Made by a program: the position numbers and the translations under genes. Below, in pieces: positions 1,894 through 27,045 of a stretch of DNA of 28,592 nt (its first letter is position 1; each line of letters begins with the position of its first letter). The stretch comes from Naegleria gruberi. Its lineage: Eukaryota. The stretch is from assembly GCA_000004985.1 (NCBI GenBank), contig GG738959.1, one strand, 5' to 3'. The notes beneath the pieces are model-generated. The model did no database searches. It was not told the origin of the DNA and saw only the letters and a list, made by a program, of their open reading frames with translations.

Positions 1894-3441
1894 NNNNNNN
1901 NNNNNNNNNNNNNNNNNNNNNNNNNNNNNNNNNNNNNNNNNNNNNNNNNNNNNNNNNNNNNNNNNNNNNNNNNNNNNNNNNNNNNNNNNNNNNNNNNNNN
2001 NNNNNNNNNNNNNNNNNNNNNNNNNNNNNNNNNNNNNNNNNNNNNNNNNNNNNNNNNNNNNNNNNNNNNNNNNNNNNNNNNNNNNNNNNNNNNNNNNNNN
2101 NNNNNNNNNNNNNNNNNNNNNNNNNNNNNNNNNNNNNNNNNNNNNNNNNNNNNNNNNNNNNNNNNNNNNNNNNNNNNNNNNNNNNNNNNNNNNNNNNNNN
2201 NNNNNNNNNNNNNNNNNNNNNNNNNNNNNNNNNNNNNNNNNNNNNNNNNNNNNNNNNNNNNNNNNNNNNNNNNNNNNNNNNNNNNNNNNNNNNNNNNNNN
2301 NNNNNNNNNNNNNNNNNNNNNNNNNNNNNNNNNNNNNNNNNNNNNNNNNNNNNNNNNNNNNNNNNNNNNNNNNNNNNNNNNNNNNNNNNNNNNNNNNNNN
2401 NNNNNNNNNNNNNNNNNNNNNNNNNNNNNNNNNNNNNNNNNNNNNNNNNNNNNNNNNNNNNNNNNNNNNNNNNNNNNNNNNNNNNNNNNNNNNNNNNNNN
2501 NNNNNNNNNNNNNNNNNNNNNNNNNNNNNNNNNNNNNNNNNNNNNNNNNNNNNNNNNNNNNNNNNNNNNNNNNNNNNNNNNNNNNNNNNNNNNNNNNNNN
2601 NNNNNNNNNNNNNNNNNNNNNNNNNNNNNNNNNNNNNNNNNNNNNNNNNNNNNNNNNNNNNNNNNNNNNNNNNNNNNNNNNNNNNNNNNNNNNNNNNNNN
2701 NNNNNNNNNNNNNNNNNNNNNNNNNNNNNNNNNNNNNNNNNNNNNNNNNNNNNNNNNNNNNNNNNNNNNNNNNNNNNNNNNNNNNNNNNNNNNNNNNNNN
2801 NNNNNNNNNNNNNNNNNNNNNNNNNNNNNNNNNNNNNNNNNNNNNNNNNNNNNNNNNNNNNNNNNNNNNNNNNNNNNNNNNNNNNNNNNNNNNNNNNNNN
2901 NNNNNNNNNNNNNNNNNNNNNNNNNNNNNNNNNNNNNNNNNNNNNNNNNNNNNNNNNNNNNNNNNNNNNNNNNNNNNNNNNNNNNNNNNNNNNNNNNNNN
3001 NNNNNNNNNNNNNNNNNNNNNNNNNNNNNNNNNNNNNNNNNNNNNNNNNNNNNNNNNNNNNNNNNNNNNNNNNNNNNNNNNNNNNNNNNNNNNNNNNNNN
3101 NNNNNNNNNNNNNNNNNNNNNNNNNNNNNNNNNNNNNNNNNNNNNNNNNNNNNNNNNNNNNNNNNNNNNNNNNNNNNNNNNNNNNNNNNNNNNNNNNNNN
3201 NNNNNNNNNNNNNNNNNNNNNNNNNNNNNNNNNNNNNNNNNNNNNNNNNNNNNNNNNNNNNNNNNNNNNNNNNNNNNNNNNNNNNNNNNNNNNNNNNNNN
3301 NNNNNNNNNNNNNNNNNNNNNNNNNNNNNNNNNNNNNNNNNNNNNNNNNNNNNNNNNNNNNNNNNNNNNNNNNNNNNNNNNNNNNNNNNNNNNNNNNNNN
3401 NNNNNNNNNNNNNNNNNNNNNNNNNNNNNNNNNNNNNNNNN
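1894..3441. other. Run of 1548 N (assembly gap or masked segment)
   Basis: Literal n characters. ORF-track entries 1820..3457 and 1858..3465 are artefacts of translating N as X. Confidence 0.99.
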
Positions 3442-3544: not shown

Positions 3545-4414
3545 ATGGAGAATAATTGTAAAGTTTCTATCATTAACATGGTAAATCTTCAATATGTAAA
3601 ATTACCACAAAAGATATTTATTAGGTAGAGAGTGGATAGTTTACATGCTTCTTGTCATGTTTCCGAGTGTAAAAGTAATCAACATCATAAGAAACTTAAT
3701 AAAAACATCAATTATTCAGATATCGAAGATCTCCAAGAGTTACGATACAAGACTTTAAATTATACATTTAATAATTAAATAAACATTATACGTTGTTGTT
3801 TTATTATTGTTTAATTTGTAATTGGGCCATGAATCAACTCTGGTAGCATGAAATATCGGAACTTGGCAAATTGATAAGATGATGAAAATCTGATAATAAA
3901 TATGATGTTTATTATCTATTTAAATAGTAGTACTAAAAGACATGATTCAAGTTGGTGAAGTACATGTTGAGTTATGGTCCATGTACTTTTTCAAAATTCA
4001 CATGTACCTATCCCTATCATAACTTGACCAAAATTGATAAGATAAAGTTCTCCTACCTACTATTGACTATTCCGAACAATGCTACATTGACAGTTTTCCA
4101 ACTTATCCAGTAGATCCAACGGTGATGAATTTAGTGAAAATTTTGACATTTCACCAAAATTACATTACTAAAAATTAATTTCCACAAATACTATTATTAT
4201 ATTGATGGAAAACAATAATGATGATGGTTGGTAAATGATCCGATGATGGAACACCAAATTGTGATTTTCCATCAAGAAAAATAAATTCCAATTTCATGAT
4301 GATAATCCACCAATAAAAATTACTAATATTACTACTATTTAGATAATGTTGAGATGATGTTGTGAAAGTTTGGTGGTTTCATGATGTAAAACCGCTCCGA
4401 GAATGGTCATGTCC
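3545..4414 (+). repeat. Left arm of large inverted repeat (high-identity core 3775-4414; diverged outer extension to ~3545, possibly continuing into the N-run)
   Basis: The reverse complement of 3775-4414 aligns with 7461-8110 at roughly 92-94% identity with a few small indels, e.g. rc(4381-4414) 'ggacatgaccattctcggagcggttttacatcat' against 7461-7496 'ggacatgatgattttcggagtggttttacatcat'. Identity drops to ~70% for 3545-3775 against 8110-8325. No ORFs lie inside the arm. Confidence 0.85.
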
Positions 4415-4697: not shown

Positions 4698-4747
4698 NNN
4701 NNNNNNNNNNNNNNNNNNNNNNNNNNNNNNNNNNNNNNNNNNNNNNN
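4698..4747. other. 50-N scaffold gap
   Basis: Literal n run, 9 nt downstream of the TAA stop of the minus-strand GTPase-like ORF. Confidence 0.99.
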
Positions 4748-4756
4748 TTTCTGATC

Positions 4757-5578
4757 TTAGCACAACAGGCATTTTTCCTTTTTGTTTAGAACTGGAGCTT
4801 TGATAAGTTTCGAATAGATAAACGTCTTGACAATCAAATCTTCCAATTCTTCCAGTCCAACAAACTCTCTTGAAGATGTTGTCACATAGCTCACAGCACC
4901 CATCCGCTGAGATAGTTTCTTTCCATACGAATCATACTTTTTACACAAATAACTATTCCAATATTTTCCCAAATGAAAATCTCCTGGTTTTGAATAATCA
5001 CAAATATCAGATTTTGTTCCAACGACCAATACTGATCTGTTGTAATCCAAAAATGGTTGAATTTCTGGAAGAAATCTATCAGAAAAATCCTTCAAACACT
5101 TATTCATCATTACTGGATTTGATATTGAATAGCACATTATAAAAATGTGACACTTGGATGGTGTATCATAAGAATAAGGAGTGTCAACTAATTGTAAACA
5201 ATAACCTTCAATCCTCTTAATATCACACGAATTATAGTAACGGGGAACAGAAAAACCCTCTTCCGAATCATTGTATCTTTCATACCTAAGGTGAAGATAG
5301 TAACACAGAGTGGTCTTTCCAATACCATGTGGCCCAATGAAGCAACATCGAATTGGCTCTGATTCTTTCAGTAAATTTGCATATTCCTCCAATTTGAAAT
5401 TCTCACAAAATGTCTCAAAGTTTTCAATTTCTTCCGAATATGAACCTCGCCACATCCAATCACTATTTAAAAGATTGAACCAAATGGTATTGACCAACAT
5501 AAGTTGGAGATGTTCGGAAAATGAAAGAAATTTATCAACGATCGTGATGGTATCCAGTGGCAAGAGATTTAATGACAT
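4757..5578 (-). CDS. Divergent Ras/Rho-superfamily small GTPase-fold protein, probably catalytically impaired (pseudo-GTPase-like). The ORF is open up to 5683, but its first ~24 codons are a tRNA-like sequence, so the first plausible ATG is 5576-5578 (alternatives 5498-5500 and 5453-5455)
   Basis: P-loop 'GPHGIGKTT' (GxxxxGK[ST]). Rho-like layout 'VDTPYSYD' in place of DTAGQE, then 'IFIMCYSISNP...LPEIQPF...VLVVGTKSDI' where Rho has 'VFLICFSVDSP...VGNKKDL'. G4 is TKSD instead of NKxD. The switch-I Thr is replaced ('VPRYYNS' against 'VPTVFEN'). C-terminus is polybasic plus 'KCLLC', followed by a TAA stop at 4757-4759. Confidence 0.6.
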   Translation of the reverse strand: MSLNLLPLDTITIVDKFLSFSEHLQLMLVNTIWFNLLNSDWMWRGSYSEEIENFETFCENFKLEEYANLLKESEPIRCCFIGPHGIGKTTLCYYLHLRYERYNDSEEGFSVPRYYNSCDIKRIEGYCLQLVDTPYSYDTPSKCHIFIMCYSISNPVMMNKCLKDFSDRFLPEIQPFLDYNRSVLVVGTKSDICDYSKPGDFHLGKYWNSYLCKKYDSYGKKLSQRMGAVSYVTTSSREFVGLEELEDLIVKTFIYSKLIKAPVLNKKEKCLLC

Positions 5579-5611
5579 TTTTTGATATGATTGAAGAAAA
5601 TAACGATGGTT

Positions 5612-5686
5612 AAAAAAACAGTCCGACCACAGGATGACAGTTGTTCTTGCTACAGTCCCATGCTCTACCAGCTGAGCTATCATCGG
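5612..5686 (-). pseudogene. tRNA-Tyr(GUA)-like gene relic: acceptor 5' half, D-arm, anticodon arm with a 14-nt intron-like insert and variable region, but no T-arm; ends in a T7 run
   Basis: Minus-strand sequence CCGATGA-TA-GCTCAGCTGGTAGAGC-A-TGGGA-CTGTAG-[CAAGAACAACTGTC]-A-TCCTG-TGGTC-GGACTG-TTTTTTT. The first 37 nt match canonical eukaryotic tRNA-Tyr at roughly 31 of 37 positions; from memory the human gene reads CCTTCGATAGCTCAGCTGGTAGAGCGGAGGACTGTAG|intron|ATCCTTAGGTC.... An A-box is present. No GGTTCGANTCC B-box or T-arm follows 'TGGTC'. The ORF-track ATG at 5681-5683 lies inside the acceptor stem. Confidence 0.6.
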
Positions 5687-5867
5687 TATCGATCTTTTTG
5701 AAAAACAATATATGGTTTACCCATTTCCCCACAAAATAAATACACACCCTATTAAATAATATTAATTGTTGATGCCAGATTCATTGCAATATTTGACAAG
5801 AAGAGTAACACTTTTATTGTCAAGTAATCTGTAGGTAGAGAAGGAAGCCAGGTAAAAAAATAATGAG

Positions 5868-6014
5868 ATGAGCAATGGAATAACAAGAACCCTTCAAAAT
5901 ATGCAACAAACACAATTACATCTCAAAAAGAGTAGTGAAAATTTATCAAACTTGTTGGCTGCTATTGAATCACGTCAGCAACCTGTTGTTGAAAATAAAG
6001 AAGGTTCTTATTAA
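5868..6014 (+). CDS. Small ORF, 48 aa (MSNGITRTLQNMQQTQLHLKKSSENLSNLLAAIESRQQPVVENKEGSY); speculative small coiled-coil protein or chance ORF
   Basis: ATG at 5868 and TAA at 6012-6014. The residue composition looks protein-like rather than the I/N/K/Y/F bias of random AT-rich ORFs, and local GC is raised. There is no recognisable family, and the ORF is below the ORF-track size cutoff. Confidence 0.15.
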   Translation: MSNGITRTLQNMQQTQLHLKKSSENLSNLLAAIESRQQPVVENKEGSY

Positions 6015-6163
6015 GGTGGCGGTATGGTGTTCCGAAATAGGCAGCTAATCATCAAAAAAAAATTTGTTATGATGAAAAATGTTTTACTCCTTTCCTCTCT
6101 TTCTGCTCATGTGATAATAGCACATCACACCTTCATCTTTAATTTTGCAAACAATATTGCTAT

Positions 6164-7312
6164 CTAGCGTTTTTGAATTTTTTCCTGATGAAACCCNNNN
6201 NNNNNNNNNNNNNNNNNNNNNNNNNNNNNNNNNNNNNNNNNNNNNNATTGCAATGTTTTTGGATCTCTTTGTATGCTCCTCATTACAAAACTATCAAGAG
6301 CATAATCGTCATCTAGTTCTTCATAGATTGAGCTAATTACTGAATCAGGAAGGTCGTGTTGTGTAATCTTCTTGATAGCATATTCTGTCGATAATTCCTT
6401 CCAATTTGCATACAATACAACTAGTGGATTAATTTTGATGAGTTCCAAAACATATTCAATATCTCCTTGAATATTACTAATAGCATACTGAATACATTGC
6501 GGAAAGTTGACAATTAATTCTGAAATATAAGTAATATCACTTCTCAATTGTAAGTGAGCATATCTAAATAGTGAAGGATCAAAAGGCAGAATATCATTCT
6601 TGAAAAATTCACGATCTTCCTTCAATTTTGAACTGGCAAACATGATTGCCGAATGTGAACTCATGACAGCAGCTTTAACAACCTCCTTATCTGCACTAAA
6701 GCAGTGCTTGATATCAGAATCTTCCAACATGTATCCTTCCTTTGAGACTACTAACAAGGCAATATCTCTATCCTTTCTCATTCTTTCCTTCAAATAATAG
6801 TAACACTTGTAATTCCATTCAATGGCTTCCATAATGAAAGCCTTGTCGTTTTGCAACTCTTCACTAGCTTGACCCAATATCTGACAATAATTAGTATTGG
6901 CTATTATTTTCAAAAGTCATTCCCTGTCATTGGAATAATAAGGCAATTCCAAAAAGTTGTAACATGAAACATTTCTACTAATCAACTCTCTTACATAATA
7001 TGGTTTCATCATGTTTGGAGAGCATTTAGAAACAACATAAGGAACATAAGAGACAGCCTTCAAGATGATTTCCGAAAAGAATCGATTATCTTTCAAATTG
7101 TCTATTAATCTAAGAAACTCATCCATTGAATAATAAACGTTAGAAAAATCCAAAGAATTCAATAAACACCTTTCACACTTCCATTCAAAACGCTCATCAA
7201 GATAACGTTCTTTAAGAGCCTCACTTCCCAAAGAATCATCTGTGGCCGGAAAGATTTTTCGTTGGTTTGAAGCAGGAAAGATTTTTAAGCAAAAATTTTT
7301 CCTGGATCTCAC
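6164..7312 (-). CDS. DUF4116-type repeat protein gene, probably a pseudogene or sequence error. Two same-frame ORFs (6917..7312 and 6164..6913) are separated by a single TGA at 6917-6919, and the span also contains a 50-N gap
   Basis: Repeated ~25-aa units resemble the DUF4116 consensus (ALqYASeELrnDkEvVlaAv...): 'QILGQASEELQNDKAFIMEAIEW', 'DKEVVKAAVMSSHSAIMFASSKLKEDREFFKND', 'IQYAISNIQGDIEYVLELIKINPLVVLYANWKEL'. The upstream ORF begins with GTG at 7310-7312; its first in-frame ATG is 7124-7126. The downstream ORF begins with TTG; its first in-frame ATG is 6830-6832, which lies downstream of clearly homologous repeat coding sequence. The C-terminal frame across the N gap is uncertain (the apparent TAG at 6164-6166 assumes frame continuity across 50 N). 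Confidence 0.5.
6197..6246. other. 50-N scaffold gap inside the DUF4116-like ORF
   Basis: Literal n run. Confidence 0.99.
7246..7299 (-). repeat. 27-bp tandem duplication (2 copies) in the 5' region of the DUF4116-like ORF
   Basis: 'ccggaaagatttttcgttggtttgaag' (7246-7272) and 'caggaaagatttttaagcaaaaatttt' (7273-7299). On the minus strand this encodes ..KIFPASNQR KIFPATD... Confidence 0.6.
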
Positions 7313-7460
7313 AGAAAAAAATTTGTTGTGGCTAAAAATAAAATATTGGTTATATTTTCAACAACTCCCACACACACATTCTAGAACATACCTCGCTCAC
7401 AAAAACTAAGTAACAACCAATCTTCATAAAAAAAATATTCAACATTCTTCTACTCAAGGA

Positions 7461-8325
7461 GGACATGATGATTTTCGGAGTGGTTTTACATCATGAAACC
7501 ACCAAACTTTCACATCATCATCTCAACATCATCTATATAGTAGTAATAATAGTAATTTTTATTGGTGGATTATCATCATGAAATTGGAATTTATTTTTCA
7601 TGATGGAAAATCATAAGTTGGTGTTCCATCATCGGATCATTCACCAACCATCATTATTATTGTTTTCCATCAATATAATAATAGTATTTGTGGAAATTAA
7701 TTTTTAGTAATGTAATTTTGGTGAAATGTCAAAATTTTCACTAAATTCATCATCACTGCTGGATCTACTGGACAAGTTGGAAAACTGTCAATGTAGTATT
7801 GTTCGGAATGGTCAATAGTAGGTAGGAGAACTTTCTCTTATCAATTTTGGTCAAGTTATGATAGGGATAGGTACATGTGAATTTGAAAAAGTACATGGAC
7901 CATAACTCAACATGTACTTCACCAACTTGAATCATGTCTTTTAGTACTACTATTTAAATAGATAATAAACATCATATTTATTATCAGATTTTCATCATGT
8001 TGTCAATTTACCAAGTTCCGATATTTCATGCTACCAGAGTTGATTCATAGCCCAATTACAAATCAAACAACAATAAAACAACAATTCATAATGTTTATTA
8101 TGTTATTAAATGTATAATTTCAAGTCTTGTAGCATAATTTGTGAAAATCATGGATATCTGATATTTTCATGTTTTTATTGTTTTTCTCATGATGTGGATA
8201 TTGAATTCTCACTGAAACATCACGAATAGCATGTCATTCATCCATTCTCTACCAGATAATTATCTTTTACTGTAATTTTCACTATTGGATATATTACTTT
8301 TAATATTTGTGATACTTTACTATTT
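7461..8325 (-). repeat. Right arm of large inverted repeat (core 7461-8110; diverged extension to ~8325)
   Basis: See the left-arm entry. The inner boundary is sharp: similarity begins at 7461 'ggacatga'. 7451-7460 does not match rc(4415-4424). Confidence 0.85.
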
Positions 8326-9598: not shown

Positions 9599-12500
9599 NN
9601 NNNNNNNNNNNNNNNNNNNNNNNNNNNNNNNNNNNNNNNNNNNNNNNNNNNNNNNNNNNNNNNNNNNNNNNNNNNNNNNNNNNNNNNNNNNNNNNNNNNN
9701 NNNNNNNNNNNNNNNNNNNNNNNNNNNNNNNNNNNNNNNNNNNNNNNNNNNNNNNNNNNNNNNNNNNNNNNNNNNNNNNNNNNNNNNNNNNNNNNNNNNN
9801 NNNNNNNNNNNNNNNNNNNNNNNNNNNNNNNNNNNNNNNNNNNNNNNNNNNNNNNNNNNNNNNNNNNNNNNNNNNNNNNNNNNNNNNNNNNNNNNNNNNN
9901 NNNNNNNNNNNNNNNNNNNNNNNNNNNNNNNNNNNNNNNNNNNNNNNNNNNNNNNNNNNNNNNNNNNNNNNNNNNNNNNNNNNNNNNNNNNNNNNNNNNN
10001 NNNNNNNNNNNNNNNNNNNNNNNNNNNNNNNNNNNNNNNNNNNNNNNNNNNNNNNNNNNNNNNNNNNNNNNNNNNNNNNNNNNNNNNNNNNNNNNNNNNN
10101 NNNNNNNNNNNNNNNNNNNNNNNNNNNNNNNNNNNNNNNNNNNNNNNNNNNNNNNNNNNNNNNNNNNNNNNNNNNNNNNNNNNNNNNNNNNNNNNNNNNN
10201 NNNNNNNNNNNNNNNNNNNNNNNNNNNNNNNNNNNNNNNNNNNNNNNNNNNNNNNNNNNNNNNNNNNNNNNNNNNNNNNNNNNNNNNNNNNNNNNNNNNN
10301 NNNNNNNNNNNNNNNNNNNNNNNNNNNNNNNNNNNNNNNNNNNNNNNNNNNNNNNNNNNNNNNNNNNNNNNNNNNNNNNNNNNNNNNNNNNNNNNNNNNN
10401 NNNNNNNNNNNNNNNNNNNNNNNNNNNNNNNNNNNNNNNNNNNNNNNNNNNNNNNNNNNNNNNNNNNNNNNNNNNNNNNNNNNNNNNNNNNNNNNNNNNN
10501 NNNNNNNNNNNNNNNNNNNNNNNNNNNNNNNNNNNNNNNNNNNNNNNNNNNNNNNNNNNNNNNNNNNNNNNNNNNNNNNNNNNNNNNNNNNNNNNNNNNN
10601 NNNNNNNNNNNNNNNNNNNNNNNNNNNNNNNNNNNNNNNNNNNNNNNNNNNNNNNNNNNNNNNNNNNNNNNNNNNNNNNNNNNNNNNNNNNNNNNNNNNN
10701 NNNNNNNNNNNNNNNNNNNNNNNNNNNNNNNNNNNNNNNNNNNNNNNNNNNNNNNNNNNNNNNNNNNNNNNNNNNNNNNNNNNNNNNNNNNNNNNNNNNN
10801 NNNNNNNNNNNNNNNNNNNNNNNNNNNNNNNNNNNNNNNNNNNNNNNNNNNNNNNNNNNNNNNNNNNNNNNNNNNNNNNNNNNNNNNNNNNNNNNNNNNN
10901 NNNNNNNNNNNNNNNNNNNNNNNNNNNNNNNNNNNNNNNNNNNNNNNNNNNNNNNNNNNNNNNNNNNNNNNNNNNNNNNNNNNNNNNNNNNNNNNNNNNN
11001 NNNNNNNNNNNNNNNNNNNNNNNNNNNNNNNNNNNNNNNNNNNNNNNNNNNNNNNNNNNNNNNNNNNNNNNNNNNNNNNNNNNNNNNNNNNNNNNNNNNN
11101 NNNNNNNNNNNNNNNNNNNNNNNNNNNNNNNNNNNNNNNNNNNNNNNNNNNNNNNNNNNNNNNNNNNNNNNNNNNNNNNNNNNNNNNNNNNNNNNNNNNN
11201 NNNNNNNNNNNNNNNNNNNNNNNNNNNNNNNNNNNNNNNNNNNNNNNNNNNNNNNNNNNNNNNNNNNNNNNNNNNNNNNNNNNNNNNNNNNNNNNNNNNN
11301 NNNNNNNNNNNNNNNNNNNNNNNNNNNNNNNNNNNNNNNNNNNNNNNNNNNNNNNNNNNNNNNNNNNNNNNNNNNNNNNNNNNNNNNNNNNNNNNNNNNN
11401 NNNNNNNNNNNNNNNNNNNNNNNNNNNNNNNNNNNNNNNNNNNNNNNNNNNNNNNNNNNNNNNNNNNNNNNNNNNNNNNNNNNNNNNNNNNNNNNNNNNN
11501 NNNNNNNNNNNNNNNNNNNNNNNNNNNNNNNNNNNNNNNNNNNNNNNNNNNNNNNNNNNNNNNNNNNNNNNNNNNNNNNNNNNNNNNNNNNNNNNNNNNN
11601 NNNNNNNNNNNNNNNNNNNNNNNNNNNNNNNNNNNNNNNNNNNNNNNNNNNNNNNNNNNNNNNNNNNNNNNNNNNNNNNNNNNNNNNNNNNNNNNNNNNN
11701 NNNNNNNNNNNNNNNNNNNNNNNNNNNNNNNNNNNNNNNNNNNNNNNNNNNNNNNNNNNNNNNNNNNNNNNNNNNNNNNNNNNNNNNNNNNNNNNNNNNN
11801 NNNNNNNNNNNNNNNNNNNNNNNNNNNNNNNNNNNNNNNNNNNNNNNNNNNNNNNNNNNNNNNNNNNNNNNNNNNNNNNNNNNNNNNNNNNNNNNNNNNN
11901 NNNNNNNNNNNNNNNNNNNNNNNNNNNNNNNNNNNNNNNNNNNNNNNNNNNNNNNNNNNNNNNNNNNNNNNNNNNNNNNNNNNNNNNNNNNNNNNNNNNN
12001 NNNNNNNNNNNNNNNNNNNNNNNNNNNNNNNNNNNNNNNNNNNNNNNNNNNNNNNNNNNNNNNNNNNNNNNNNNNNNNNNNNNNNNNNNNNNNNNNNNNN
12101 NNNNNNNNNNNNNNNNNNNNNNNNNNNNNNNNNNNNNNNNNNNNNNNNNNNNNNNNNNNNNNNNNNNNNNNNNNNNNNNNNNNNNNNNNNNNNNNNNNNN
12201 NNNNNNNNNNNNNNNNNNNNNNNNNNNNNNNNNNNNNNNNNNNNNNNNNNNNNNNNNNNNNNNNNNNNNNNNNNNNNNNNNNNNNNNNNNNNNNNNNNNN
12301 NNNNNNNNNNNNNNNNNNNNNNNNNNNNNNNNNNNNNNNNNNNNNNNNNNNNNNNNNNNNNNNNNNNNNNNNNNNNNNNNNNNNNNNNNNNNNNNNNNNN
12401 NNNNNNNNNNNNNNNNNNNNNNNNNNNNNNNNNNNNNNNNNNNNNNNNNNNNNNNNNNNNNNNNNNNNNNNNNNNNNNNNNNNNNNNNNNNNNNNNNNNN

Positions 12501-15500
12501 NNNNNNNNNNNNNNNNNNNNNNNNNNNNNNNNNNNNNNNNNNNNNNNNNNNNNNNNNNNNNNNNNNNNNNNNNNNNNNNNNNNNNNNNNNNNNNNNNNNN
12601 NNNNNNNNNNNNNNNNNNNNNNNNNNNNNNNNNNNNNNNNNNNNNNNNNNNNNNNNNNNNNNNNNNNNNNNNNNNNNNNNNNNNNNNNNNNNNNNNNNNN
12701 NNNNNNNNNNNNNNNNNNNNNNNNNNNNNNNNNNNNNNNNNNNNNNNNNNNNNNNNNNNNNNNNNNNNNNNNNNNNNNNNNNNNNNNNNNNNNNNNNNNN
12801 NNNNNNNNNNNNNNNNNNNNNNNNNNNNNNNNNNNNNNNNNNNNNNNNNNNNNNNNNNNNNNNNNNNNNNNNNNNNNNNNNNNNNNNNNNNNNNNNNNNN
12901 NNNNNNNNNNNNNNNNNNNNNNNNNNNNNNNNNNNNNNNNNNNNNNNNNNNNNNNNNNNNNNNNNNNNNNNNNNNNNNNNNNNNNNNNNNNNNNNNNNNN
13001 NNNNNNNNNNNNNNNNNNNNNNNNNNNNNNNNNNNNNNNNNNNNNNNNNNNNNNNNNNNNNNNNNNNNNNNNNNNNNNNNNNNNNNNNNNNNNNNNNNNN
13101 NNNNNNNNNNNNNNNNNNNNNNNNNNNNNNNNNNNNNNNNNNNNNNNNNNNNNNNNNNNNNNNNNNNNNNNNNNNNNNNNNNNNNNNNNNNNNNNNNNNN
13201 NNNNNNNNNNNNNNNNNNNNNNNNNNNNNNNNNNNNNNNNNNNNNNNNNNNNNNNNNNNNNNNNNNNNNNNNNNNNNNNNNNNNNNNNNNNNNNNNNNNN
13301 NNNNNNNNNNNNNNNNNNNNNNNNNNNNNNNNNNNNNNNNNNNNNNNNNNNNNNNNNNNNNNNNNNNNNNNNNNNNNNNNNNNNNNNNNNNNNNNNNNNN
13401 NNNNNNNNNNNNNNNNNNNNNNNNNNNNNNNNNNNNNNNNNNNNNNNNNNNNNNNNNNNNNNNNNNNNNNNNNNNNNNNNNNNNNNNNNNNNNNNNNNNN
13501 NNNNNNNNNNNNNNNNNNNNNNNNNNNNNNNNNNNNNNNNNNNNNNNNNNNNNNNNNNNNNNNNNNNNNNNNNNNNNNNNNNNNNNNNNNNNNNNNNNNN
13601 NNNNNNNNNNNNNNNNNNNNNNNNNNNNNNNNNNNNNNNNNNNNNNNNNNNNNNNNNNNNNNNNNNNNNNNNNNNNNNNNNNNNNNNNNNNNNNNNNNNN
13701 NNNNNNNNNNNNNNNNNNNNNNNNNNNNNNNNNNNNNNNNNNNNNNNNNNNNNNNNNNNNNNNNNNNNNNNNNNNNNNNNNNNNNNNNNNNNNNNNNNNN
13801 NNNNNNNNNNNNNNNNNNNNNNNNNNNNNNNNNNNNNNNNNNNNNNNNNNNNNNNNNNNNNNNNNNNNNNNNNNNNNNNNNNNNNNNNNNNNNNNNNNNN
13901 NNNNNNNNNNNNNNNNNNNNNNNNNNNNNNNNNNNNNNNNNNNNNNNNNNNNNNNNNNNNNNNNNNNNNNNNNNNNNNNNNNNNNNNNNNNNNNNNNNNN
14001 NNNNNNNNNNNNNNNNNNNNNNNNNNNNNNNNNNNNNNNNNNNNNNNNNNNNNNNNNNNNNNNNNNNNNNNNNNNNNNNNNNNNNNNNNNNNNNNNNNNN
14101 NNNNNNNNNNNNNNNNNNNNNNNNNNNNNNNNNNNNNNNNNNNNNNNNNNNNNNNNNNNNNNNNNNNNNNNNNNNNNNNNNNNNNNNNNNNNNNNNNNNN
14201 NNNNNNNNNNNNNNNNNNNNNNNNNNNNNNNNNNNNNNNNNNNNNNNNNNNNNNNNNNNNNNNNNNNNNNNNNNNNNNNNNNNNNNNNNNNNNNNNNNNN
14301 NNNNNNNNNNNNNNNNNNNNNNNNNNNNNNNNNNNNNNNNNNNNNNNNNNNNNNNNNNNNNNNNNNNNNNNNNNNNNNNNNNNNNNNNNNNNNNNNNNNN
14401 NNNNNNNNNNNNNNNNNNNNNNNNNNNNNNNNNNNNNNNNNNNNNNNNNNNNNNNNNNNNNNNNNNNNNNNNNNNNNNNNNNNNNNNNNNNNNNNNNNNN
14501 NNNNNNNNNNNNNNNNNNNNNNNNNNNNNNNNNNNNNNNNNNNNNNNNNNNNNNNNNNNNNNNNNNNNNNNNNNNNNNNNNNNNNNNNNNNNNNNNNNNN
14601 NNNNNNNNNNNNNNNNNNNNNNNNNNNNNNNNNNNNNNNNNNNNNNNNNNNNNNNNNNNNNNNNNNNNNNNNNNNNNNNNNNNNNNNNNNNNNNNNNNNN
14701 NNNNNNNNNNNNNNNNNNNNNNNNNNNNNNNNNNNNNNNNNNNNNNNNNNNNNNNNNNNNNNNNNNNNNNNNNNNNNNNNNNNNNNNNNNNNNNNNNNNN
14801 NNNNNNNNNNNNNNNNNNNNNNNNNNNNNNNNNNNNNNNNNNNNNNNNNNNNNNNNNNNNNNNNNNNNNNNNNNNNNNNNNNNNNNNNNNNNNNNNNNNN
14901 NNNNNNNNNNNNNNNNNNNNNNNNNNNNNNNNNNNNNNNNNNNNNNNNNNNNNNNNNNNNNNNNNNNNNNNNNNNNNNNNNNNNNNNNNNNNNNNNNNNN
15001 NNNNNNNNNNNNNNNNNNNNNNNNNNNNNNNNNNNNNNNNNNNNNNNNNNNNNNNNNNNNNNNNNNNNNNNNNNNNNNNNNNNNNNNNNNNNNNNNNNNN
15101 NNNNNNNNNNNNNNNNNNNNNNNNNNNNNNNNNNNNNNNNNNNNNNNNNNNNNNNNNNNNNNNNNNNNNNNNNNNNNNNNNNNNNNNNNNNNNNNNNNNN
15201 NNNNNNNNNNNNNNNNNNNNNNNNNNNNNNNNNNNNNNNNNNNNNNNNNNNNNNNNNNNNNNNNNNNNNNNNNNNNNNNNNNNNNNNNNNNNNNNNNNNN
15301 NNNNNNNNNNNNNNNNNNNNNNNNNNNNNNNNNNNNNNNNNNNNNNNNNNNNNNNNNNNNNNNNNNNNNNNNNNNNNNNNNNNNNNNNNNNNNNNNNNNN
15401 NNNNNNNNNNNNNNNNNNNNNNNNNNNNNNNNNNNNNNNNNNNNNNNNNNNNNNNNNNNNNNNNNNNNNNNNNNNNNNNNNNNNNNNNNNNNNNNNNNNN

Positions 15501-18500
15501 NNNNNNNNNNNNNNNNNNNNNNNNNNNNNNNNNNNNNNNNNNNNNNNNNNNNNNNNNNNNNNNNNNNNNNNNNNNNNNNNNNNNNNNNNNNNNNNNNNNN
15601 NNNNNNNNNNNNNNNNNNNNNNNNNNNNNNNNNNNNNNNNNNNNNNNNNNNNNNNNNNNNNNNNNNNNNNNNNNNNNNNNNNNNNNNNNNNNNNNNNNNN
15701 NNNNNNNNNNNNNNNNNNNNNNNNNNNNNNNNNNNNNNNNNNNNNNNNNNNNNNNNNNNNNNNNNNNNNNNNNNNNNNNNNNNNNNNNNNNNNNNNNNNN
15801 NNNNNNNNNNNNNNNNNNNNNNNNNNNNNNNNNNNNNNNNNNNNNNNNNNNNNNNNNNNNNNNNNNNNNNNNNNNNNNNNNNNNNNNNNNNNNNNNNNNN
15901 NNNNNNNNNNNNNNNNNNNNNNNNNNNNNNNNNNNNNNNNNNNNNNNNNNNNNNNNNNNNNNNNNNNNNNNNNNNNNNNNNNNNNNNNNNNNNNNNNNNN
16001 NNNNNNNNNNNNNNNNNNNNNNNNNNNNNNNNNNNNNNNNNNNNNNNNNNNNNNNNNNNNNNNNNNNNNNNNNNNNNNNNNNNNNNNNNNNNNNNNNNNN
16101 NNNNNNNNNNNNNNNNNNNNNNNNNNNNNNNNNNNNNNNNNNNNNNNNNNNNNNNNNNNNNNNNNNNNNNNNNNNNNNNNNNNNNNNNNNNNNNNNNNNN
16201 NNNNNNNNNNNNNNNNNNNNNNNNNNNNNNNNNNNNNNNNNNNNNNNNNNNNNNNNNNNNNNNNNNNNNNNNNNNNNNNNNNNNNNNNNNNNNNNNNNNN
16301 NNNNNNNNNNNNNNNNNNNNNNNNNNNNNNNNNNNNNNNNNNNNNNNNNNNNNNNNNNNNNNNNNNNNNNNNNNNNNNNNNNNNNNNNNNNNNNNNNNNN
16401 NNNNNNNNNNNNNNNNNNNNNNNNNNNNNNNNNNNNNNNNNNNNNNNNNNNNNNNNNNNNNNNNNNNNNNNNNNNNNNNNNNNNNNNNNNNNNNNNNNNN
16501 NNNNNNNNNNNNNNNNNNNNNNNNNNNNNNNNNNNNNNNNNNNNNNNNNNNNNNNNNNNNNNNNNNNNNNNNNNNNNNNNNNNNNNNNNNNNNNNNNNNN
16601 NNNNNNNNNNNNNNNNNNNNNNNNNNNNNNNNNNNNNNNNNNNNNNNNNNNNNNNNNNNNNNNNNNNNNNNNNNNNNNNNNNNNNNNNNNNNNNNNNNNN
16701 NNNNNNNNNNNNNNNNNNNNNNNNNNNNNNNNNNNNNNNNNNNNNNNNNNNNNNNNNNNNNNNNNNNNNNNNNNNNNNNNNNNNNNNNNNNNNNNNNNNN
16801 NNNNNNNNNNNNNNNNNNNNNNNNNNNNNNNNNNNNNNNNNNNNNNNNNNNNNNNNNNNNNNNNNNNNNNNNNNNNNNNNNNNNNNNNNNNNNNNNNNNN
16901 NNNNNNNNNNNNNNNNNNNNNNNNNNNNNNNNNNNNNNNNNNNNNNNNNNNNNNNNNNNNNNNNNNNNNNNNNNNNNNNNNNNNNNNNNNNNNNNNNNNN
17001 NNNNNNNNNNNNNNNNNNNNNNNNNNNNNNNNNNNNNNNNNNNNNNNNNNNNNNNNNNNNNNNNNNNNNNNNNNNNNNNNNNNNNNNNNNNNNNNNNNNN
17101 NNNNNNNNNNNNNNNNNNNNNNNNNNNNNNNNNNNNNNNNNNNNNNNNNNNNNNNNNNNNNNNNNNNNNNNNNNNNNNNNNNNNNNNNNNNNNNNNNNNN
17201 NNNNNNNNNNNNNNNNNNNNNNNNNNNNNNNNNNNNNNNNNNNNNNNNNNNNNNNNNNNNNNNNNNNNNNNNNNNNNNNNNNNNNNNNNNNNNNNNNNNN
17301 NNNNNNNNNNNNNNNNNNNNNNNNNNNNNNNNNNNNNNNNNNNNNNNNNNNNNNNNNNNNNNNNNNNNNNNNNNNNNNNNNNNNNNNNNNNNNNNNNNNN
17401 NNNNNNNNNNNNNNNNNNNNNNNNNNNNNNNNNNNNNNNNNNNNNNNNNNNNNNNNNNNNNNNNNNNNNNNNNNNNNNNNNNNNNNNNNNNNNNNNNNNN
17501 NNNNNNNNNNNNNNNNNNNNNNNNNNNNNNNNNNNNNNNNNNNNNNNNNNNNNNNNNNNNNNNNNNNNNNNNNNNNNNNNNNNNNNNNNNNNNNNNNNNN
17601 NNNNNNNNNNNNNNNNNNNNNNNNNNNNNNNNNNNNNNNNNNNNNNNNNNNNNNNNNNNNNNNNNNNNNNNNNNNNNNNNNNNNNNNNNNNNNNNNNNNN
17701 NNNNNNNNNNNNNNNNNNNNNNNNNNNNNNNNNNNNNNNNNNNNNNNNNNNNNNNNNNNNNNNNNNNNNNNNNNNNNNNNNNNNNNNNNNNNNNNNNNNN
17801 NNNNNNNNNNNNNNNNNNNNNNNNNNNNNNNNNNNNNNNNNNNNNNNNNNNNNNNNNNNNNNNNNNNNNNNNNNNNNNNNNNNNNNNNNNNNNNNNNNNN
17901 NNNNNNNNNNNNNNNNNNNNNNNNNNNNNNNNNNNNNNNNNNNNNNNNNNNNNNNNNNNNNNNNNNNNNNNNNNNNNNNNNNNNNNNNNNNNNNNNNNNN
18001 NNNNNNNNNNNNNNNNNNNNNNNNNNNNNNNNNNNNNNNNNNNNNNNNNNNNNNNNNNNNNNNNNNNNNNNNNNNNNNNNNNNNNNNNNNNNNNNNNNNN
18101 NNNNNNNNNNNNNNNNNNNNNNNNNNNNNNNNNNNNNNNNNNNNNNNNNNNNNNNNNNNNNNNNNNNNNNNNNNNNNNNNNNNNNNNNNNNNNNNNNNNN
18201 NNNNNNNNNNNNNNNNNNNNNNNNNNNNNNNNNNNNNNNNNNNNNNNNNNNNNNNNNNNNNNNNNNNNNNNNNNNNNNNNNNNNNNNNNNNNNNNNNNNN
18301 NNNNNNNNNNNNNNNNNNNNNNNNNNNNNNNNNNNNNNNNNNNNNNNNNNNNNNNNNNNNNNNNNNNNNNNNNNNNNNNNNNNNNNNNNNNNNNNNNNNN
18401 NNNNNNNNNNNNNNNNNNNNNNNNNNNNNNNNNNNNNNNNNNNNNNNNNNNNNNNNNNNNNNNNNNNNNNNNNNNNNNNNNNNNNNNNNNNNNNNNNNNN

Positions 18501-21500
18501 NNNNNNNNNNNNNNNNNNNNNNNNNNNNNNNNNNNNNNNNNNNNNNNNNNNNNNNNNNNNNNNNNNNNNNNNNNNNNNNNNNNNNNNNNNNNNNNNNNNN
18601 NNNNNNNNNNNNNNNNNNNNNNNNNNNNNNNNNNNNNNNNNNNNNNNNNNNNNNNNNNNNNNNNNNNNNNNNNNNNNNNNNNNNNNNNNNNNNNNNNNNN
18701 NNNNNNNNNNNNNNNNNNNNNNNNNNNNNNNNNNNNNNNNNNNNNNNNNNNNNNNNNNNNNNNNNNNNNNNNNNNNNNNNNNNNNNNNNNNNNNNNNNNN
18801 NNNNNNNNNNNNNNNNNNNNNNNNNNNNNNNNNNNNNNNNNNNNNNNNNNNNNNNNNNNNNNNNNNNNNNNNNNNNNNNNNNNNNNNNNNNNNNNNNNNN
18901 NNNNNNNNNNNNNNNNNNNNNNNNNNNNNNNNNNNNNNNNNNNNNNNNNNNNNNNNNNNNNNNNNNNNNNNNNNNNNNNNNNNNNNNNNNNNNNNNNNNN
19001 NNNNNNNNNNNNNNNNNNNNNNNNNNNNNNNNNNNNNNNNNNNNNNNNNNNNNNNNNNNNNNNNNNNNNNNNNNNNNNNNNNNNNNNNNNNNNNNNNNNN
19101 NNNNNNNNNNNNNNNNNNNNNNNNNNNNNNNNNNNNNNNNNNNNNNNNNNNNNNNNNNNNNNNNNNNNNNNNNNNNNNNNNNNNNNNNNNNNNNNNNNNN
19201 NNNNNNNNNNNNNNNNNNNNNNNNNNNNNNNNNNNNNNNNNNNNNNNNNNNNNNNNNNNNNNNNNNNNNNNNNNNNNNNNNNNNNNNNNNNNNNNNNNNN
19301 NNNNNNNNNNNNNNNNNNNNNNNNNNNNNNNNNNNNNNNNNNNNNNNNNNNNNNNNNNNNNNNNNNNNNNNNNNNNNNNNNNNNNNNNNNNNNNNNNNNN
19401 NNNNNNNNNNNNNNNNNNNNNNNNNNNNNNNNNNNNNNNNNNNNNNNNNNNNNNNNNNNNNNNNNNNNNNNNNNNNNNNNNNNNNNNNNNNNNNNNNNNN
19501 NNNNNNNNNNNNNNNNNNNNNNNNNNNNNNNNNNNNNNNNNNNNNNNNNNNNNNNNNNNNNNNNNNNNNNNNNNNNNNNNNNNNNNNNNNNNNNNNNNNN
19601 NNNNNNNNNNNNNNNNNNNNNNNNNNNNNNNNNNNNNNNNNNNNNNNNNNNNNNNNNNNNNNNNNNNNNNNNNNNNNNNNNNNNNNNNNNNNNNNNNNNN
19701 NNNNNNNNNNNNNNNNNNNNNNNNNNNNNNNNNNNNNNNNNNNNNNNNNNNNNNNNNNNNNNNNNNNNNNNNNNNNNNNNNNNNNNNNNNNNNNNNNNNN
19801 NNNNNNNNNNNNNNNNNNNNNNNNNNNNNNNNNNNNNNNNNNNNNNNNNNNNNNNNNNNNNNNNNNNNNNNNNNNNNNNNNNNNNNNNNNNNNNNNNNNN
19901 NNNNNNNNNNNNNNNNNNNNNNNNNNNNNNNNNNNNNNNNNNNNNNNNNNNNNNNNNNNNNNNNNNNNNNNNNNNNNNNNNNNNNNNNNNNNNNNNNNNN
20001 NNNNNNNNNNNNNNNNNNNNNNNNNNNNNNNNNNNNNNNNNNNNNNNNNNNNNNNNNNNNNNNNNNNNNNNNNNNNNNNNNNNNNNNNNNNNNNNNNNNN
20101 NNNNNNNNNNNNNNNNNNNNNNNNNNNNNNNNNNNNNNNNNNNNNNNNNNNNNNNNNNNNNNNNNNNNNNNNNNNNNNNNNNNNNNNNNNNNNNNNNNNN
20201 NNNNNNNNNNNNNNNNNNNNNNNNNNNNNNNNNNNNNNNNNNNNNNNNNNNNNNNNNNNNNNNNNNNNNNNNNNNNNNNNNNNNNNNNNNNNNNNNNNNN
20301 NNNNNNNNNNNNNNNNNNNNNNNNNNNNNNNNNNNNNNNNNNNNNNNNNNNNNNNNNNNNNNNNNNNNNNNNNNNNNNNNNNNNNNNNNNNNNNNNNNNN
20401 NNNNNNNNNNNNNNNNNNNNNNNNNNNNNNNNNNNNNNNNNNNNNNNNNNNNNNNNNNNNNNNNNNNNNNNNNNNNNNNNNNNNNNNNNNNNNNNNNNNN
20501 NNNNNNNNNNNNNNNNNNNNNNNNNNNNNNNNNNNNNNNNNNNNNNNNNNNNNNNNNNNNNNNNNNNNNNNNNNNNNNNNNNNNNNNNNNNNNNNNNNNN
20601 NNNNNNNNNNNNNNNNNNNNNNNNNNNNNNNNNNNNNNNNNNNNNNNNNNNNNNNNNNNNNNNNNNNNNNNNNNNNNNNNNNNNNNNNNNNNNNNNNNNN
20701 NNNNNNNNNNNNNNNNNNNNNNNNNNNNNNNNNNNNNNNNNNNNNNNNNNNNNNNNNNNNNNNNNNNNNNNNNNNNNNNNNNNNNNNNNNNNNNNNNNNN
20801 NNNNNNNNNNNNNNNNNNNNNNNNNNNNNNNNNNNNNNNNNNNNNNNNNNNNNNNNNNNNNNNNNNNNNNNNNNNNNNNNNNNNNNNNNNNNNNNNNNNN
20901 NNNNNNNNNNNNNNNNNNNNNNNNNNNNNNNNNNNNNNNNNNNNNNNNNNNNNNNNNNNNNNNNNNNNNNNNNNNNNNNNNNNNNNNNNNNNNNNNNNNN
21001 NNNNNNNNNNNNNNNNNNNNNNNNNNNNNNNNNNNNNNNNNNNNNNNNNNNNNNNNNNNNNNNNNNNNNNNNNNNNNNNNNNNNNNNNNNNNNNNNNNNN
21101 NNNNNNNNNNNNNNNNNNNNNNNNNNNNNNNNNNNNNNNNNNNNNNNNNNNNNNNNNNNNNNNNNNNNNNNNNNNNNNNNNNNNNNNNNNNNNNNNNNNN
21201 NNNNNNNNNNNNNNNNNNNNNNNNNNNNNNNNNNNNNNNNNNNNNNNNNNNNNNNNNNNNNNNNNNNNNNNNNNNNNNNNNNNNNNNNNNNNNNNNNNNN
21301 NNNNNNNNNNNNNNNNNNNNNNNNNNNNNNNNNNNNNNNNNNNNNNNNNNNNNNNNNNNNNNNNNNNNNNNNNNNNNNNNNNNNNNNNNNNNNNNNNNNN
21401 NNNNNNNNNNNNNNNNNNNNNNNNNNNNNNNNNNNNNNNNNNNNNNNNNNNNNNNNNNNNNNNNNNNNNNNNNNNNNNNNNNNNNNNNNNNNNNNNNNNN

Positions 21501-24500: not shown

Positions 24501-27045
24501 NNNNNNNNNNNNNNNNNNNNNNNNNNNNNNNNNNNNNNNNNNNNNNNNNNNNNNNNNNNNNNNNNNNNNNNNNNNNNNNNNNNNNNNNNNNNNNNNNNNN
24601 NNNNNNNNNNNNNNNNNNNNNNNNNNNNNNNNNNNNNNNNNNNNNNNNNNNNNNNNNNNNNNNNNNNNNNNNNNNNNNNNNNNNNNNNNNNNNNNNNNNN
24701 NNNNNNNNNNNNNNNNNNNNNNNNNNNNNNNNNNNNNNNNNNNNNNNNNNNNNNNNNNNNNNNNNNNNNNNNNNNNNNNNNNNNNNNNNNNNNNNNNNNN
24801 NNNNNNNNNNNNNNNNNNNNNNNNNNNNNNNNNNNNNNNNNNNNNNNNNNNNNNNNNNNNNNNNNNNNNNNNNNNNNNNNNNNNNNNNNNNNNNNNNNNN
24901 NNNNNNNNNNNNNNNNNNNNNNNNNNNNNNNNNNNNNNNNNNNNNNNNNNNNNNNNNNNNNNNNNNNNNNNNNNNNNNNNNNNNNNNNNNNNNNNNNNNN
25001 NNNNNNNNNNNNNNNNNNNNNNNNNNNNNNNNNNNNNNNNNNNNNNNNNNNNNNNNNNNNNNNNNNNNNNNNNNNNNNNNNNNNNNNNNNNNNNNNNNNN
25101 NNNNNNNNNNNNNNNNNNNNNNNNNNNNNNNNNNNNNNNNNNNNNNNNNNNNNNNNNNNNNNNNNNNNNNNNNNNNNNNNNNNNNNNNNNNNNNNNNNNN
25201 NNNNNNNNNNNNNNNNNNNNNNNNNNNNNNNNNNNNNNNNNNNNNNNNNNNNNNNNNNNNNNNNNNNNNNNNNNNNNNNNNNNNNNNNNNNNNNNNNNNN
25301 NNNNNNNNNNNNNNNNNNNNNNNNNNNNNNNNNNNNNNNNNNNNNNNNNNNNNNNNNNNNNNNNNNNNNNNNNNNNNNNNNNNNNNNNNNNNNNNNNNNN
25401 NNNNNNNNNNNNNNNNNNNNNNNNNNNNNNNNNNNNNNNNNNNNNNNNNNNNNNNNNNNNNNNNNNNNNNNNNNNNNNNNNNNNNNNNNNNNNNNNNNNN
25501 NNNNNNNNNNNNNNNNNNNNNNNNNNNNNNNNNNNNNNNNNNNNNNNNNNNNNNNNNNNNNNNNNNNNNNNNNNNNNNNNNNNNNNNNNNNNNNNNNNNN
25601 NNNNNNNNNNNNNNNNNNNNNNNNNNNNNNNNNNNNNNNNNNNNNNNNNNNNNNNNNNNNNNNNNNNNNNNNNNNNNNNNNNNNNNNNNNNNNNNNNNNN
25701 NNNNNNNNNNNNNNNNNNNNNNNNNNNNNNNNNNNNNNNNNNNNNNNNNNNNNNNNNNNNNNNNNNNNNNNNNNNNNNNNNNNNNNNNNNNNNNNNNNNN
25801 NNNNNNNNNNNNNNNNNNNNNNNNNNNNNNNNNNNNNNNNNNNNNNNNNNNNNNNNNNNNNNNNNNNNNNNNNNNNNNNNNNNNNNNNNNNNNNNNNNNN
25901 NNNNNNNNNNNNNNNNNNNNNNNNNNNNNNNNNNNNNNNNNNNNNNNNNNNNNNNNNNNNNNNNNNNNNNNNNNNNNNNNNNNNNNNNNNNNNNNNNNNN
26001 NNNNNNNNNNNNNNNNNNNNNNNNNNNNNNNNNNNNNNNNNNNNNNNNNNNNNNNNNNNNNNNNNNNNNNNNNNNNNNNNNNNNNNNNNNNNNNNNNNNN
26101 NNNNNNNNNNNNNNNNNNNNNNNNNNNNNNNNNNNNNNNNNNNNNNNNNNNNNNNNNNNNNNNNNNNNNNNNNNNNNNNNNNNNNNNNNNNNNNNNNNNN
26201 NNNNNNNNNNNNNNNNNNNNNNNNNNNNNNNNNNNNNNNNNNNNNNNNNNNNNNNNNNNNNNNNNNNNNNNNNNNNNNNNNNNNNNNNNNNNNNNNNNNN
26301 NNNNNNNNNNNNNNNNNNNNNNNNNNNNNNNNNNNNNNNNNNNNNNNNNNNNNNNNNNNNNNNNNNNNNNNNNNNNNNNNNNNNNNNNNNNNNNNNNNNN
26401 NNNNNNNNNNNNNNNNNNNNNNNNNNNNNNNNNNNNNNNNNNNNNNNNNNNNNNNNNNNNNNNNNNNNNNNNNNNNNNNNNNNNNNNNNNNNNNNNNNNN
26501 NNNNNNNNNNNNNNNNNNNNNNNNNNNNNNNNNNNNNNNNNNNNNNNNNNNNNNNNNNNNNNNNNNNNNNNNNNNNNNNNNNNNNNNNNNNNNNNNNNNN
26601 NNNNNNNNNNNNNNNNNNNNNNNNNNNNNNNNNNNNNNNNNNNNNNNNNNNNNNNNNNNNNNNNNNNNNNNNNNNNNNNNNNNNNNNNNNNNNNNNNNNN
26701 NNNNNNNNNNNNNNNNNNNNNNNNNNNNNNNNNNNNNNNNNNNNNNNNNNNNNNNNNNNNNNNNNNNNNNNNNNNNNNNNNNNNNNNNNNNNNNNNNNNN
26801 NNNNNNNNNNNNNNNNNNNNNNNNNNNNNNNNNNNNNNNNNNNNNNNNNNNNNNNNNNNNNNNNNNNNNNNNNNNNNNNNNNNNNNNNNNNNNNNNNNNN
26901 NNNNNNNNNNNNNNNNNNNNNNNNNNNNNNNNNNNNNNNNNNNNNNNNNNNNNNNNNNNNNNNNNNNNNNNNNNNNNNNNNNNNNNNNNNNNNNNNNNNN
27001 NNNNNNNNNNNNNNNNNNNNNNNNNNNNNNNNNNNNNNNNNNNNN
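9599..27045. other. Run of 17,447 N (sized assembly gap or masked region)
   Basis: Literal n characters. All ORF-track entries spanning 9536-27605 (5825-6007 aa of X) are artefacts. Confidence 0.99.

Follow-up and report, generated by a model that had tools for sequence, protein, structure and literature searches.

The stretch examined here is the whole of a Naegleria gruberi NEG-M scaffold (GG738959.1; 28,592 bp, referred to below as the window), one end of which is telomeric, and its minus strand carries at positions 4757–5578 a complete open reading frame (ORF) for a protein of 273 residues. From ORF reading, Pfam matches and comparison with a paralogue, this protein consists of an F-box-like domain, a short linker, a Rac-like guanosine triphosphatase (GTPase) domain and a C-terminal CaaX tail. 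Its GTPase domain lacks the core of switch II, which was deleted from the genome in frame, together with the intron that once interrupted it. The reading developed here, which in our judgement stands at an even chance of being correct, is that the ORF would belong to a lineage of F-box–Rac proteins that no longer switch, the window copy itself being redundant and drifting; at best, then, it would be a non-switching pseudoGTPase, and possibly it is a decaying duplicate.

The ORF runs unbroken from its ATG to its TAA, that is from 5578 to 4757 on the minus strand with the TAA at 4757–4759, and at the base composition of the window 273 codons without a stop would arise by chance with a probability of about 2e-10. 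It bears none of the usual marks of a pseudogene, as there is no frameshift and no premature stop, the start codon is kept, and the two deletions that it has undergone are both in frame. A ciliate-type genetic code, raised by the G/T-rich telomere, was rejected, since the organism is Naegleria and the paralogues share the same stop. The twin of the encoded protein is XP_002682426.1 of N. gruberi (339 aa, annotated as “rho family member”, on a 941-kb scaffold), from which it differs at a single aligned residue, in the CaaX box (CLLC instead of CMLC), and by a gap of 66 residues between MWRG and SYSEE. Judging from this match, the ORF is a subtelomeric copy, duplicated very recently, of the gene for XP_002682426.1. 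The family around the twin is, as its sequences indicate, a Naegleria or heterolobosean one that combines an N-terminal F-box, a linker, a GTPase domain of the Rac/Rho type and a CaaX end. Neither the 273-aa nor the 308-aa product had an exact match when looked up, and JGI metagenomes, scanned once with a protein pattern and once with a 24-nt conserved DNA word, yielded no relatives.

What remains of the G3 motif reads DTPYSYDTP (5159–5185, minus strand) and includes the point where 87 bp have been deleted from the genome; the extent of this deletion is given by the DNA of a canonical paralogue. This paralogue, the counterpart of XP_002668220.1, lies on an ENA metagenome contig from a close relative of NEG-M (L001), where GGTCAGGAAGA is followed by an intron of 57 nt (gtaag…cag) and then by TTATGACAGATTAAGACCT. 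In codons, the paralogue has GAC ACA CCA GGT CAG GAA GA before the intron and T TAT GAC AGA TTA AGA CCT TTA TCT TAT GAT after it, whereas the window has GAC ACT CCT TAT TCT TAT GAT at the same place. The missing 87 bp are made up of the 57-nt intron and 30 flanking coding nucleotides, which correspond to the ten codons at the core of switch II, and the reading frame is kept. The trinucleotide ACC is found as a microhomology at both edges of the deletion, and beside the junction Leu70 has become Tyr (TTA to TAT). The same gap of ten residues is seen in alignments with Rac1 and TC10, with 16 Rho-family relatives and with the paralogue DNA: DTP is followed in the window by YSYDTPSKCH, Gly60 and Gln61 having been deleted rather than substituted. 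The preliminary description of this DNA had correctly reported the loss of the DxxG Gly and of the catalytic Gln from DTPYSY, but what it had taken for a substituted DTAGQE motif is the result of a ten-residue deletion with loss of the intron.

The Rho switch II signature is thus one that the canonical paralogue possesses and that has been deleted down to DTP-YSY in the window protein; the canonical protein as manually corrected in Table S8 of Herman et al. (2021, BMC Biol 19:142, PMC8296547) carries the switch II stretch intact. The junction is shared by XP_002682426.1 and by a further metagenome contig (L002), and thus represents an inherited allele and not an assembly error. A mis-spliced retrocopy was considered as the cause of the intron loss and rejected, as the cryptic donor/acceptor pairs checked by eye were all frameshifted, unlike what is observed; a genomic deletion with ACC microhomology fits the sequences better.

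With regard to the remaining motifs, the P-loop or G1 motif, GPHGIGKT at residues 82–89 (5312–5335, minus strand), fits GxxxxGK[ST] and is kept, as had been proposed, although the His that stands at the position of Rac Gly12 had been overlooked. Alignment gives G4 as TKSD at residues 188–191 (5006–5017, minus strand) and G5 as TSS, equivalent to CSA/TSA, at residues 234–236 (4871–4879, minus strand). TKSD had been listed earlier as a departure from NKxD, which was mistaken: it is an ordinary Rac-type [NT]KxD, Rac1 itself having TKLD. Switch I has left a remnant, VPRYY (5234–5248, minus strand), in which Arg113 (5240–5242) falls on the Thr35 position in every alignment, whether with Rac1 and TC10 or with the relatives, and here the replacement of the switch-I Thr by Arg had been recognised from the start. 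The canonical paralogue has His both at the Gly12 position (GPHAIGKT) and at the Thr35 position, and Arg is found at the latter in more distant relatives (P0007, P0009 and P0023). As the canonical paralogue already lacks Thr35 and Gly12, the loss of these two residues predates the switch-II deletion, and by the time switch II was deleted the clade had probably become atypical and deficient in GTPase activity already. Lost Gly12 is the cause of GTPase deficiency and constitutive activity in Rnd and RhoH (PMC13236570). Codons 99–123 (window 5234–5290), in and before switch I, show nonsynonymous differences and two small indels with respect to the canonical paralogue, and of the 22 nonsynonymous changes that separate that paralogue from the lineage of the window and L002 copies, about 10 fall within these 25 codons; the clustering is suggestive of selection on that surface that is either relaxed or diversifying.

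Assignment of the domain to the Rho family is based on several lines of evidence. The Pfam Ras profile (PF00071) matches residues 78–250 with 25.3 bits against a cut-off of 21.6 (47 bits for the canonical paralogue), and the best sequence matches in the PDB are TC10, Rac1 (including N. fowleri Rac1, 5vcu), RhoU and RhoA, with alignments that continue across the Rho insert and the C-terminal tail. The Rho-insert region lies at 4904–5005 (minus strand), where the spacing between G4 and G5 amounts to 46 residues, compared with 42 in Rac1 and 28 in H-Ras, and therefore accommodates the insert. An AlphaFold2 model reaches a predicted local distance difference test score (pLDDT) of 68 and a predicted template modelling score of 0.67, with core strands in the 80s; the underlying alignments were shallow (20 sequences; one word-indexed protein search gave 18 proteins), for which reason confidence in it is moderate. 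A Foldseek comparison of the model with the PDB returned Rho-family GTPases for all of the top 50 matches (E ~2e-10, template modelling score to the target 0.6–0.72). These results all agree with the Rho-like small GTPase fold proposed initially, including the profile search, which could have placed the ORF outside the Ras superfamily and placed it inside, above the cut-off. By its sequence the window protein is a member of the Rho family by descent, and not by its switch II signature.

Different identities for the ORF can be envisaged, and each of them meets evidence already at hand. We give virtually no credence to a generic P-loop NTPase of the STAND or AAA-like kind lying outside the Ras superfamily: the weak Pfam matches to nSTAND3, AAA_28 and NACHT (E 0.01–0.1) from which it could be argued are located at the P-loop only, span 20–45 residues near Walker A and remain under their own cut-offs, whereas the Ras match covers 173 residues above its cut-off, the 50 best Foldseek matches contain Rho GTPases only, and the canonical paralogue has the Rho switch II signature. 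It is extremely improbable, too, that the protein is a conventional cycling Rho GTPase whose missing Gly, Gln and Thr are artefacts of alignment. The presence of G1, G4, G5 and the Rho insert would be in keeping with such a GTPase, yet three independent alignments set the ten-residue gap exactly over G60–P69, no Gly-Gln pair exists anywhere from β3 to β4, and every alignment pairs Thr35 with Arg; correcting the alignment for an indel, which could have restored the three residues, did reveal the gap, yet Gly, Gln and Thr were still absent.

The public annotation offers another identity. The NCBI model XP_002668755.1 (375 aa, ~5203–7466, minus strand), which is also in UniProt, joins a short 5' exon in the right arm of the inverted repeat described below, an ORF with DUF4116 and the 3' half of the GTPase ORF from RIEGYC onwards, and skips the F-box, the P-loop and a tRNA-like element. 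Were this model correct, a DUF4116 gene would have the 3' half of the ORF as one of its exons, and the F-box and P-loop, in the 5' half, would be non-coding sequence. This is very unlikely, even though the model exists in both databases and the DUF4116 frame and the GTPase ORF share the minus strand, since the entire ORF from its ATG is colinear with XP_002682426.1, with P0003 and with the L001 paralogue. The proposed splice would moreover enter the GTPase fold in its middle and drop the P-loop, an in-frame stop interrupts the DUF4116 frame itself, and the model is absent from the manual re-annotation of Herman et al. XP_002668755.1 is almost certainly a chimeric mis-prediction.

Two features of the N-terminal half, the F-box and the deletion of the linker, had both been overlooked in the preliminary description. 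The F-box-like domain, NLLPLDTITIVDKFLSFSEHLQLMLVNTIWFNLLNSDWMWRGS, occupies residues 4–46 (5441–5569, minus strand) and is suggested by sub-threshold Pfam matches, by hhalign and by helices in the AlphaFold2 model. In the window protein and XP_002682426.1, the Pfam F-box/F-box-like match has an E of ~0.1 and 12.8–13 bits, below the cut-off of 20.5; at the same position E is 0.011–0.018 in the canonical paralogue and ~4e-4 to 1e-3 in Willaertia and Naegleria relatives, all of these likewise remaining under the cut-off. An hhalign comparison of ten N-termini of the family with nine canonical F-boxes, among them Skp2, FBXW7, β-TrCP and Cdc4, whose sequences were entered by hand, gave a probability of 95.7% (E 8e-9), and the model places three helices over residues 4–46 at low pLDDT (<60). 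The F-box was also called in sister Racs by Herman et al. (PMC8296547), according to whom the Rho-family genes of N. gruberi number more than 80 (Additional file 4) and, among the additional domains borne by Naegleria Rab, Rho, Ran and Gα GTPases, the F-box is the commonest, “pointing to GTPase-dependent ubiquitination”. Downstream of the F-box, the junction Gly45/Ser46 (5441–5446, minus strand) marks a deletion of 198 nt, again in frame, by which the window copy has lost 66 aa of the linker between F-box and GTPase domain; the linker is present in XP_002682426.1, P0003 and L001.

At the other end of the protein, a weakly basic LNKKEK precedes the CaaX box CLLC (4760–4789, minus strand), which stands directly before the TAA. 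The box reads CMLC in XP_002682426.1, CILC in the canonical paralogue and, among relatives, CLIC, CLIT, CVLM, CLVQ and the like. A CaaX box in which X is small or polar, Cys included, is a signal of the farnesyltransferase type. From the earlier reading of NKKEKCLLC as a polybasic region followed by a CaaX-like box, the box can be retained, being conserved in the family, but three Lys and one Glu do not amount to a polybasic region.

As for the state of the gene, much depends on L002, the sister copy in a close relative of NEG-M (ENA metagenome ERZ929261, positions 2440–3075). It shares the switch-II deletion, is truncated at the 5' end (it begins at EYANLLKESEP), contains at least six frameshifting indels plus in-frame stops, and sits directly downstream of an unrelated pair of genes for 359 and 254 aa, and its lineage-specific changes comprise 10 nonsynonymous against 1 synonymous. 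On these features L002 is a pseudogene, and it shows that the lineage with the deletion has dispersed and decayed in another strain. The ratio of nonsynonymous to synonymous substitution rates (dN/dS) is 0.37 between the window and L001 (dS 0.16) and 0.77 between the window and L002, and NEG-M and the metagenome strain do not differ in the last 140 residues of the canonical paralogue. Signs of decay are found in the wreckage of L002, in the extra 198-nt deletion, in an upstream homology that ends 28 nt before the ATG and in the stop within the DUF4116 frame; signs of constraint are found in the in-frame nature of the deletions, in the dN/dS of 0.37 against L001, in the kept CaaX box, in the intact XP_002682426.1 and in the existence of other F-box–Racs with a degenerate G3.

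What the sequences show is a duplicated F-box–Rac–CaaX gene from whose lineage one genomic event that kept the frame took out switch II together with its intron, the window copy later losing 198 nt of the linker, also in frame. With G1, G4 and G5 kept, any product could still hold guanine nucleotide, but it should not be able to sense the γ-phosphate or to hydrolyse guanosine triphosphate (GTP), and the switch-II surface for guanine nucleotide exchange factors, GTPase-activating proteins and effectors would be gone. That the protein may bind nucleotide without switching or hydrolysing had been predicted beforehand, and this seems fair for a domain in which G1, G4 and G5 are kept and Thr35, Gly60, Gln61 and Gly12 are gone. 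The product would be a prenyl (farnesyl)-anchored F-box protein with a locked Rac-like module and, by analogy with RhoBTB–Cul3, Rab40–cullin and TbFRP, might act as a constitutive adaptor or decoy of a Skp1–Cul1–F-box (SCF) ligase, governed by its abundance and not by a GTP cycle. The sub-lineage would be subject to birth-and-death decay, the window copy being probably redundant and perhaps on its way to becoming a pseudogene. Of the two terms used in the preliminary description, pseudo-GTPase seems apt, while the constitutive scaffold has to compete with a decaying duplicate in view of the L002 pseudogene and the extra 198-nt deletion.

There are several points that weigh against the view of a non-switching lineage with a redundant, drifting window copy. 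On the branch specific to the window there are no more than 2 synonymous and 2 nonsynonymous changes, which makes it uninformative on selection. XP_002682426.1 has a full ORF of 339 aa and no pseudogene flag in Herman et al., and the lineage may consequently be fully functional. The AlphaFold2 models are of moderate quality (pLDDT 68 and 65, with the F-box <60), and the F-box itself is assigned from sub-threshold Pfam matches together with an hhalign comparison against references entered by hand. A serious, if less likely, alternative is that the ORF encodes a functional pseudoGTPase under selection, a membrane-anchored SCF receptor or decoy, and that the window copy is the working gene for an isoform with a shorter linker. 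The window ORF is intact, the intron was taken out cleanly and both deletions respect the frame; XP_002682426.1 is intact as well and is catalogued as a Rac, and the CaaX box has been conserved. Other catalogued Naegleria F-box–Racs also have a degenerate G3, which reads DTAIHE, DLSDIG or DTSGAD, and LTVADD in P0006, from which it appears that catalytically dead F-box–Racs are a tolerated class. Finally, the 2 nonsynonymous changes on the window branch compare with ~6 expected under neutrality (Poisson estimate, P ~0.06). Against a working gene it must be said that L002, the only other copy with the deletion for which DNA is at hand, is a clear pseudogene, that the loss of ten residues, comprising switch II and helix α2, is far more drastic than point substitutions, and that only 28 nt are conserved upstream of a gene surrounded by relics.

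A further-reaching version, improbable when taken as a whole, is that Naegleria may keep a class of F-box-fused, farnesyl-anchored Rac decoys that lack switch II, Thr35 and Gly12. Acting as SCF receptors independently of GTP, such decoys would capture proteins that bind Rac and deliver them to ubiquitination, with either host regulators or Rho-directed toxins and effectors of grazed bacteria as possible targets; subtelomeric birth-and-death would then be a way of diversification, and the joint deletion of intron and switch II would be adaptive remodelling, not damage.

When compared with known systems, the ORF is closest to the Naegleria F-box–Rho/Rac fusions, with which it agrees in organism, family and architecture, and XP_002682426.1 has the same switch-II deletion. 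The window copy differs from XP_002682426.1 in being without the 66-aa linker and in being mis-annotated at NCBI as a DUF4116 chimera. XP_002682426.1 and XP_002668220.1 are both entered as “Rac” in Table S8 of Herman et al., where the window model XP_002668755.1 is absent and no F-box or switch-II deletion is flagged for the clade of these two proteins. A second likeness is that to pseudoGTPases, for which PMC13236570 cites Stiegler and Boggon (2020), and to the atypical, GTPase-deficient Rho proteins Rnd1-3 and RhoH (PMC13236570), which share with the window protein the missing Gly12, an altered G3/switch II and an expected escape from the GTP/GDP cycle with control by abundance. Rnd and RhoH, however, keep a full-length switch II and Thr35 and have no F-box, whereas the window protein has ten switch II residues deleted and Arg in place of Thr35. 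The likeness arose independently.

The pairing of a small-GTPase-like domain with an adaptor module for a cullin-RING ligase is also found in RhoBTB (a Cul3 adaptor) and Rab40 (SOCS box), and the GTPase domain of RhoBTB is degenerate, like that of the window protein. In those proteins, though, the module is a C-terminal BTB or SOCS box, whereas in the window protein it is an N-terminal F-box, which implies SCF/Cul1, accompanied by a CaaX box; a Pfam scan of the window protein gave no BTB match, and the protein ends 23 residues past the G domain. True RhoBTBs in Naegleria are separate genes (PMC8296547). TbFRP, a FYVE–F-box–Ras-like GTPase of Euglenozoa (PMC3593210), resembles the window protein in having an F-box upstream of a small GTPase domain and in belonging to a discoban protist, and differs from it by its FYVE domain and its Rab18-like GTPase, the GTPase of the window being Rho-like. 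No FYVE match was found in the Pfam scan of the window protein, and in PMC3593210 a potential ortholog of TbFRP was not found in the genome of N. gruberi.

The F-box–Rho architecture, the family and the near-identical twin are thus already known, as are atypical Rho proteins and pseudoGTPases; what is new is the uncatalogued, mis-annotated copy, the recognition of the F-box in this clade and the deletion of intron and switch II in a single event. One chimeric public model, XP_002668755.1, is corrected in this way, and one uncatalogued copy is added to the published inventory of the Ras superfamily in Naegleria. It is nonetheless of wider interest that the motif pattern of a pseudo-GTPase can come from one imprecise deletion of an intron with adjoining exon sequence, and not from point mutations, the GTPase switch being removable all at once. 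Should a protein be produced from the ORF, it would represent a naturally occurring Rac–F-box fusion without switch II, and as such a tool for asking what the Rho fold does in the absence of a switch, and it could be used to probe whether GTPase-linked ubiquitination in Naegleria needs the GTP cycle; the copy may, on the other hand, simply be decaying.

The ORF lies in a subtelomeric cassette bounded by inverted repeats, in accordance with what had been noted at the outset. Positions 1–435 consist of (CCCAAA)n, that is TTTGGG repeats, with a few variant units toward the inner end, and are recognised as telomere by this repeat content at the end of the window; they agree with the candidate telomere repeat TTTGGG derived for N. 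gruberi from genome data in 2013 (PMC3622300). Some 3 kb from the telomere, an inverted repeat of ~830 nt per arm has its left arm at 3585–4414 and its right arm at 7461–8292, the two being 85–96% complementary and matching in three blocks. The core of 3,046 nt between the arms contains the DUF4116 frame, the tRNA-like relic and the F-box–Rac ORF, all on the minus strand. Around two thirds of the window are N-masked (1894–3441, 4698–4747, 6197–6246 and 9599–27045).

Upstream of the ORF, a leader of 28 nt (5579–5606, minus strand) is, from comparison with the paralogue locus, the only upstream stretch still homologous to that of the canonical paralogue. At about 35 nt upstream of the ATG, where the homology stops, there is an element resembling tRNA-Tyr(GUA) (5612–5686, minus strand), in which acceptor, D and anticodon arms are followed by a 17-nt insert after the anticodon loop and by a T7 run, the T arm being missing. 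A real tRNA gene was considered and rejected, as ARAGORN found no match, the Rfam tRNA model scored 16.3 bits against a cut-off of 29 and there is no T arm; the element has the appearance of a tRNA relic, truncated and lying at the breakpoint of a rearrangement. Further upstream, the DUF4116 frame (6164–7312, minus strand) has a Pfam E of 3e-29 for the part 6164–6913, is split by a single in-frame TGA at 6917–6919, includes the 50-nt mask at 6197–6246 and has a 5' end without ATG; it probably represents either a pseudogene or a gene that has been modelled wrongly. Past the large mask, an ORF at 27046–27513 (minus strand) resembles by eye an NAD(P)-binding, NmrA-like protein, and a gene with an intron at 28146–28592 (plus strand) resembles, also by eye, the API5 family.

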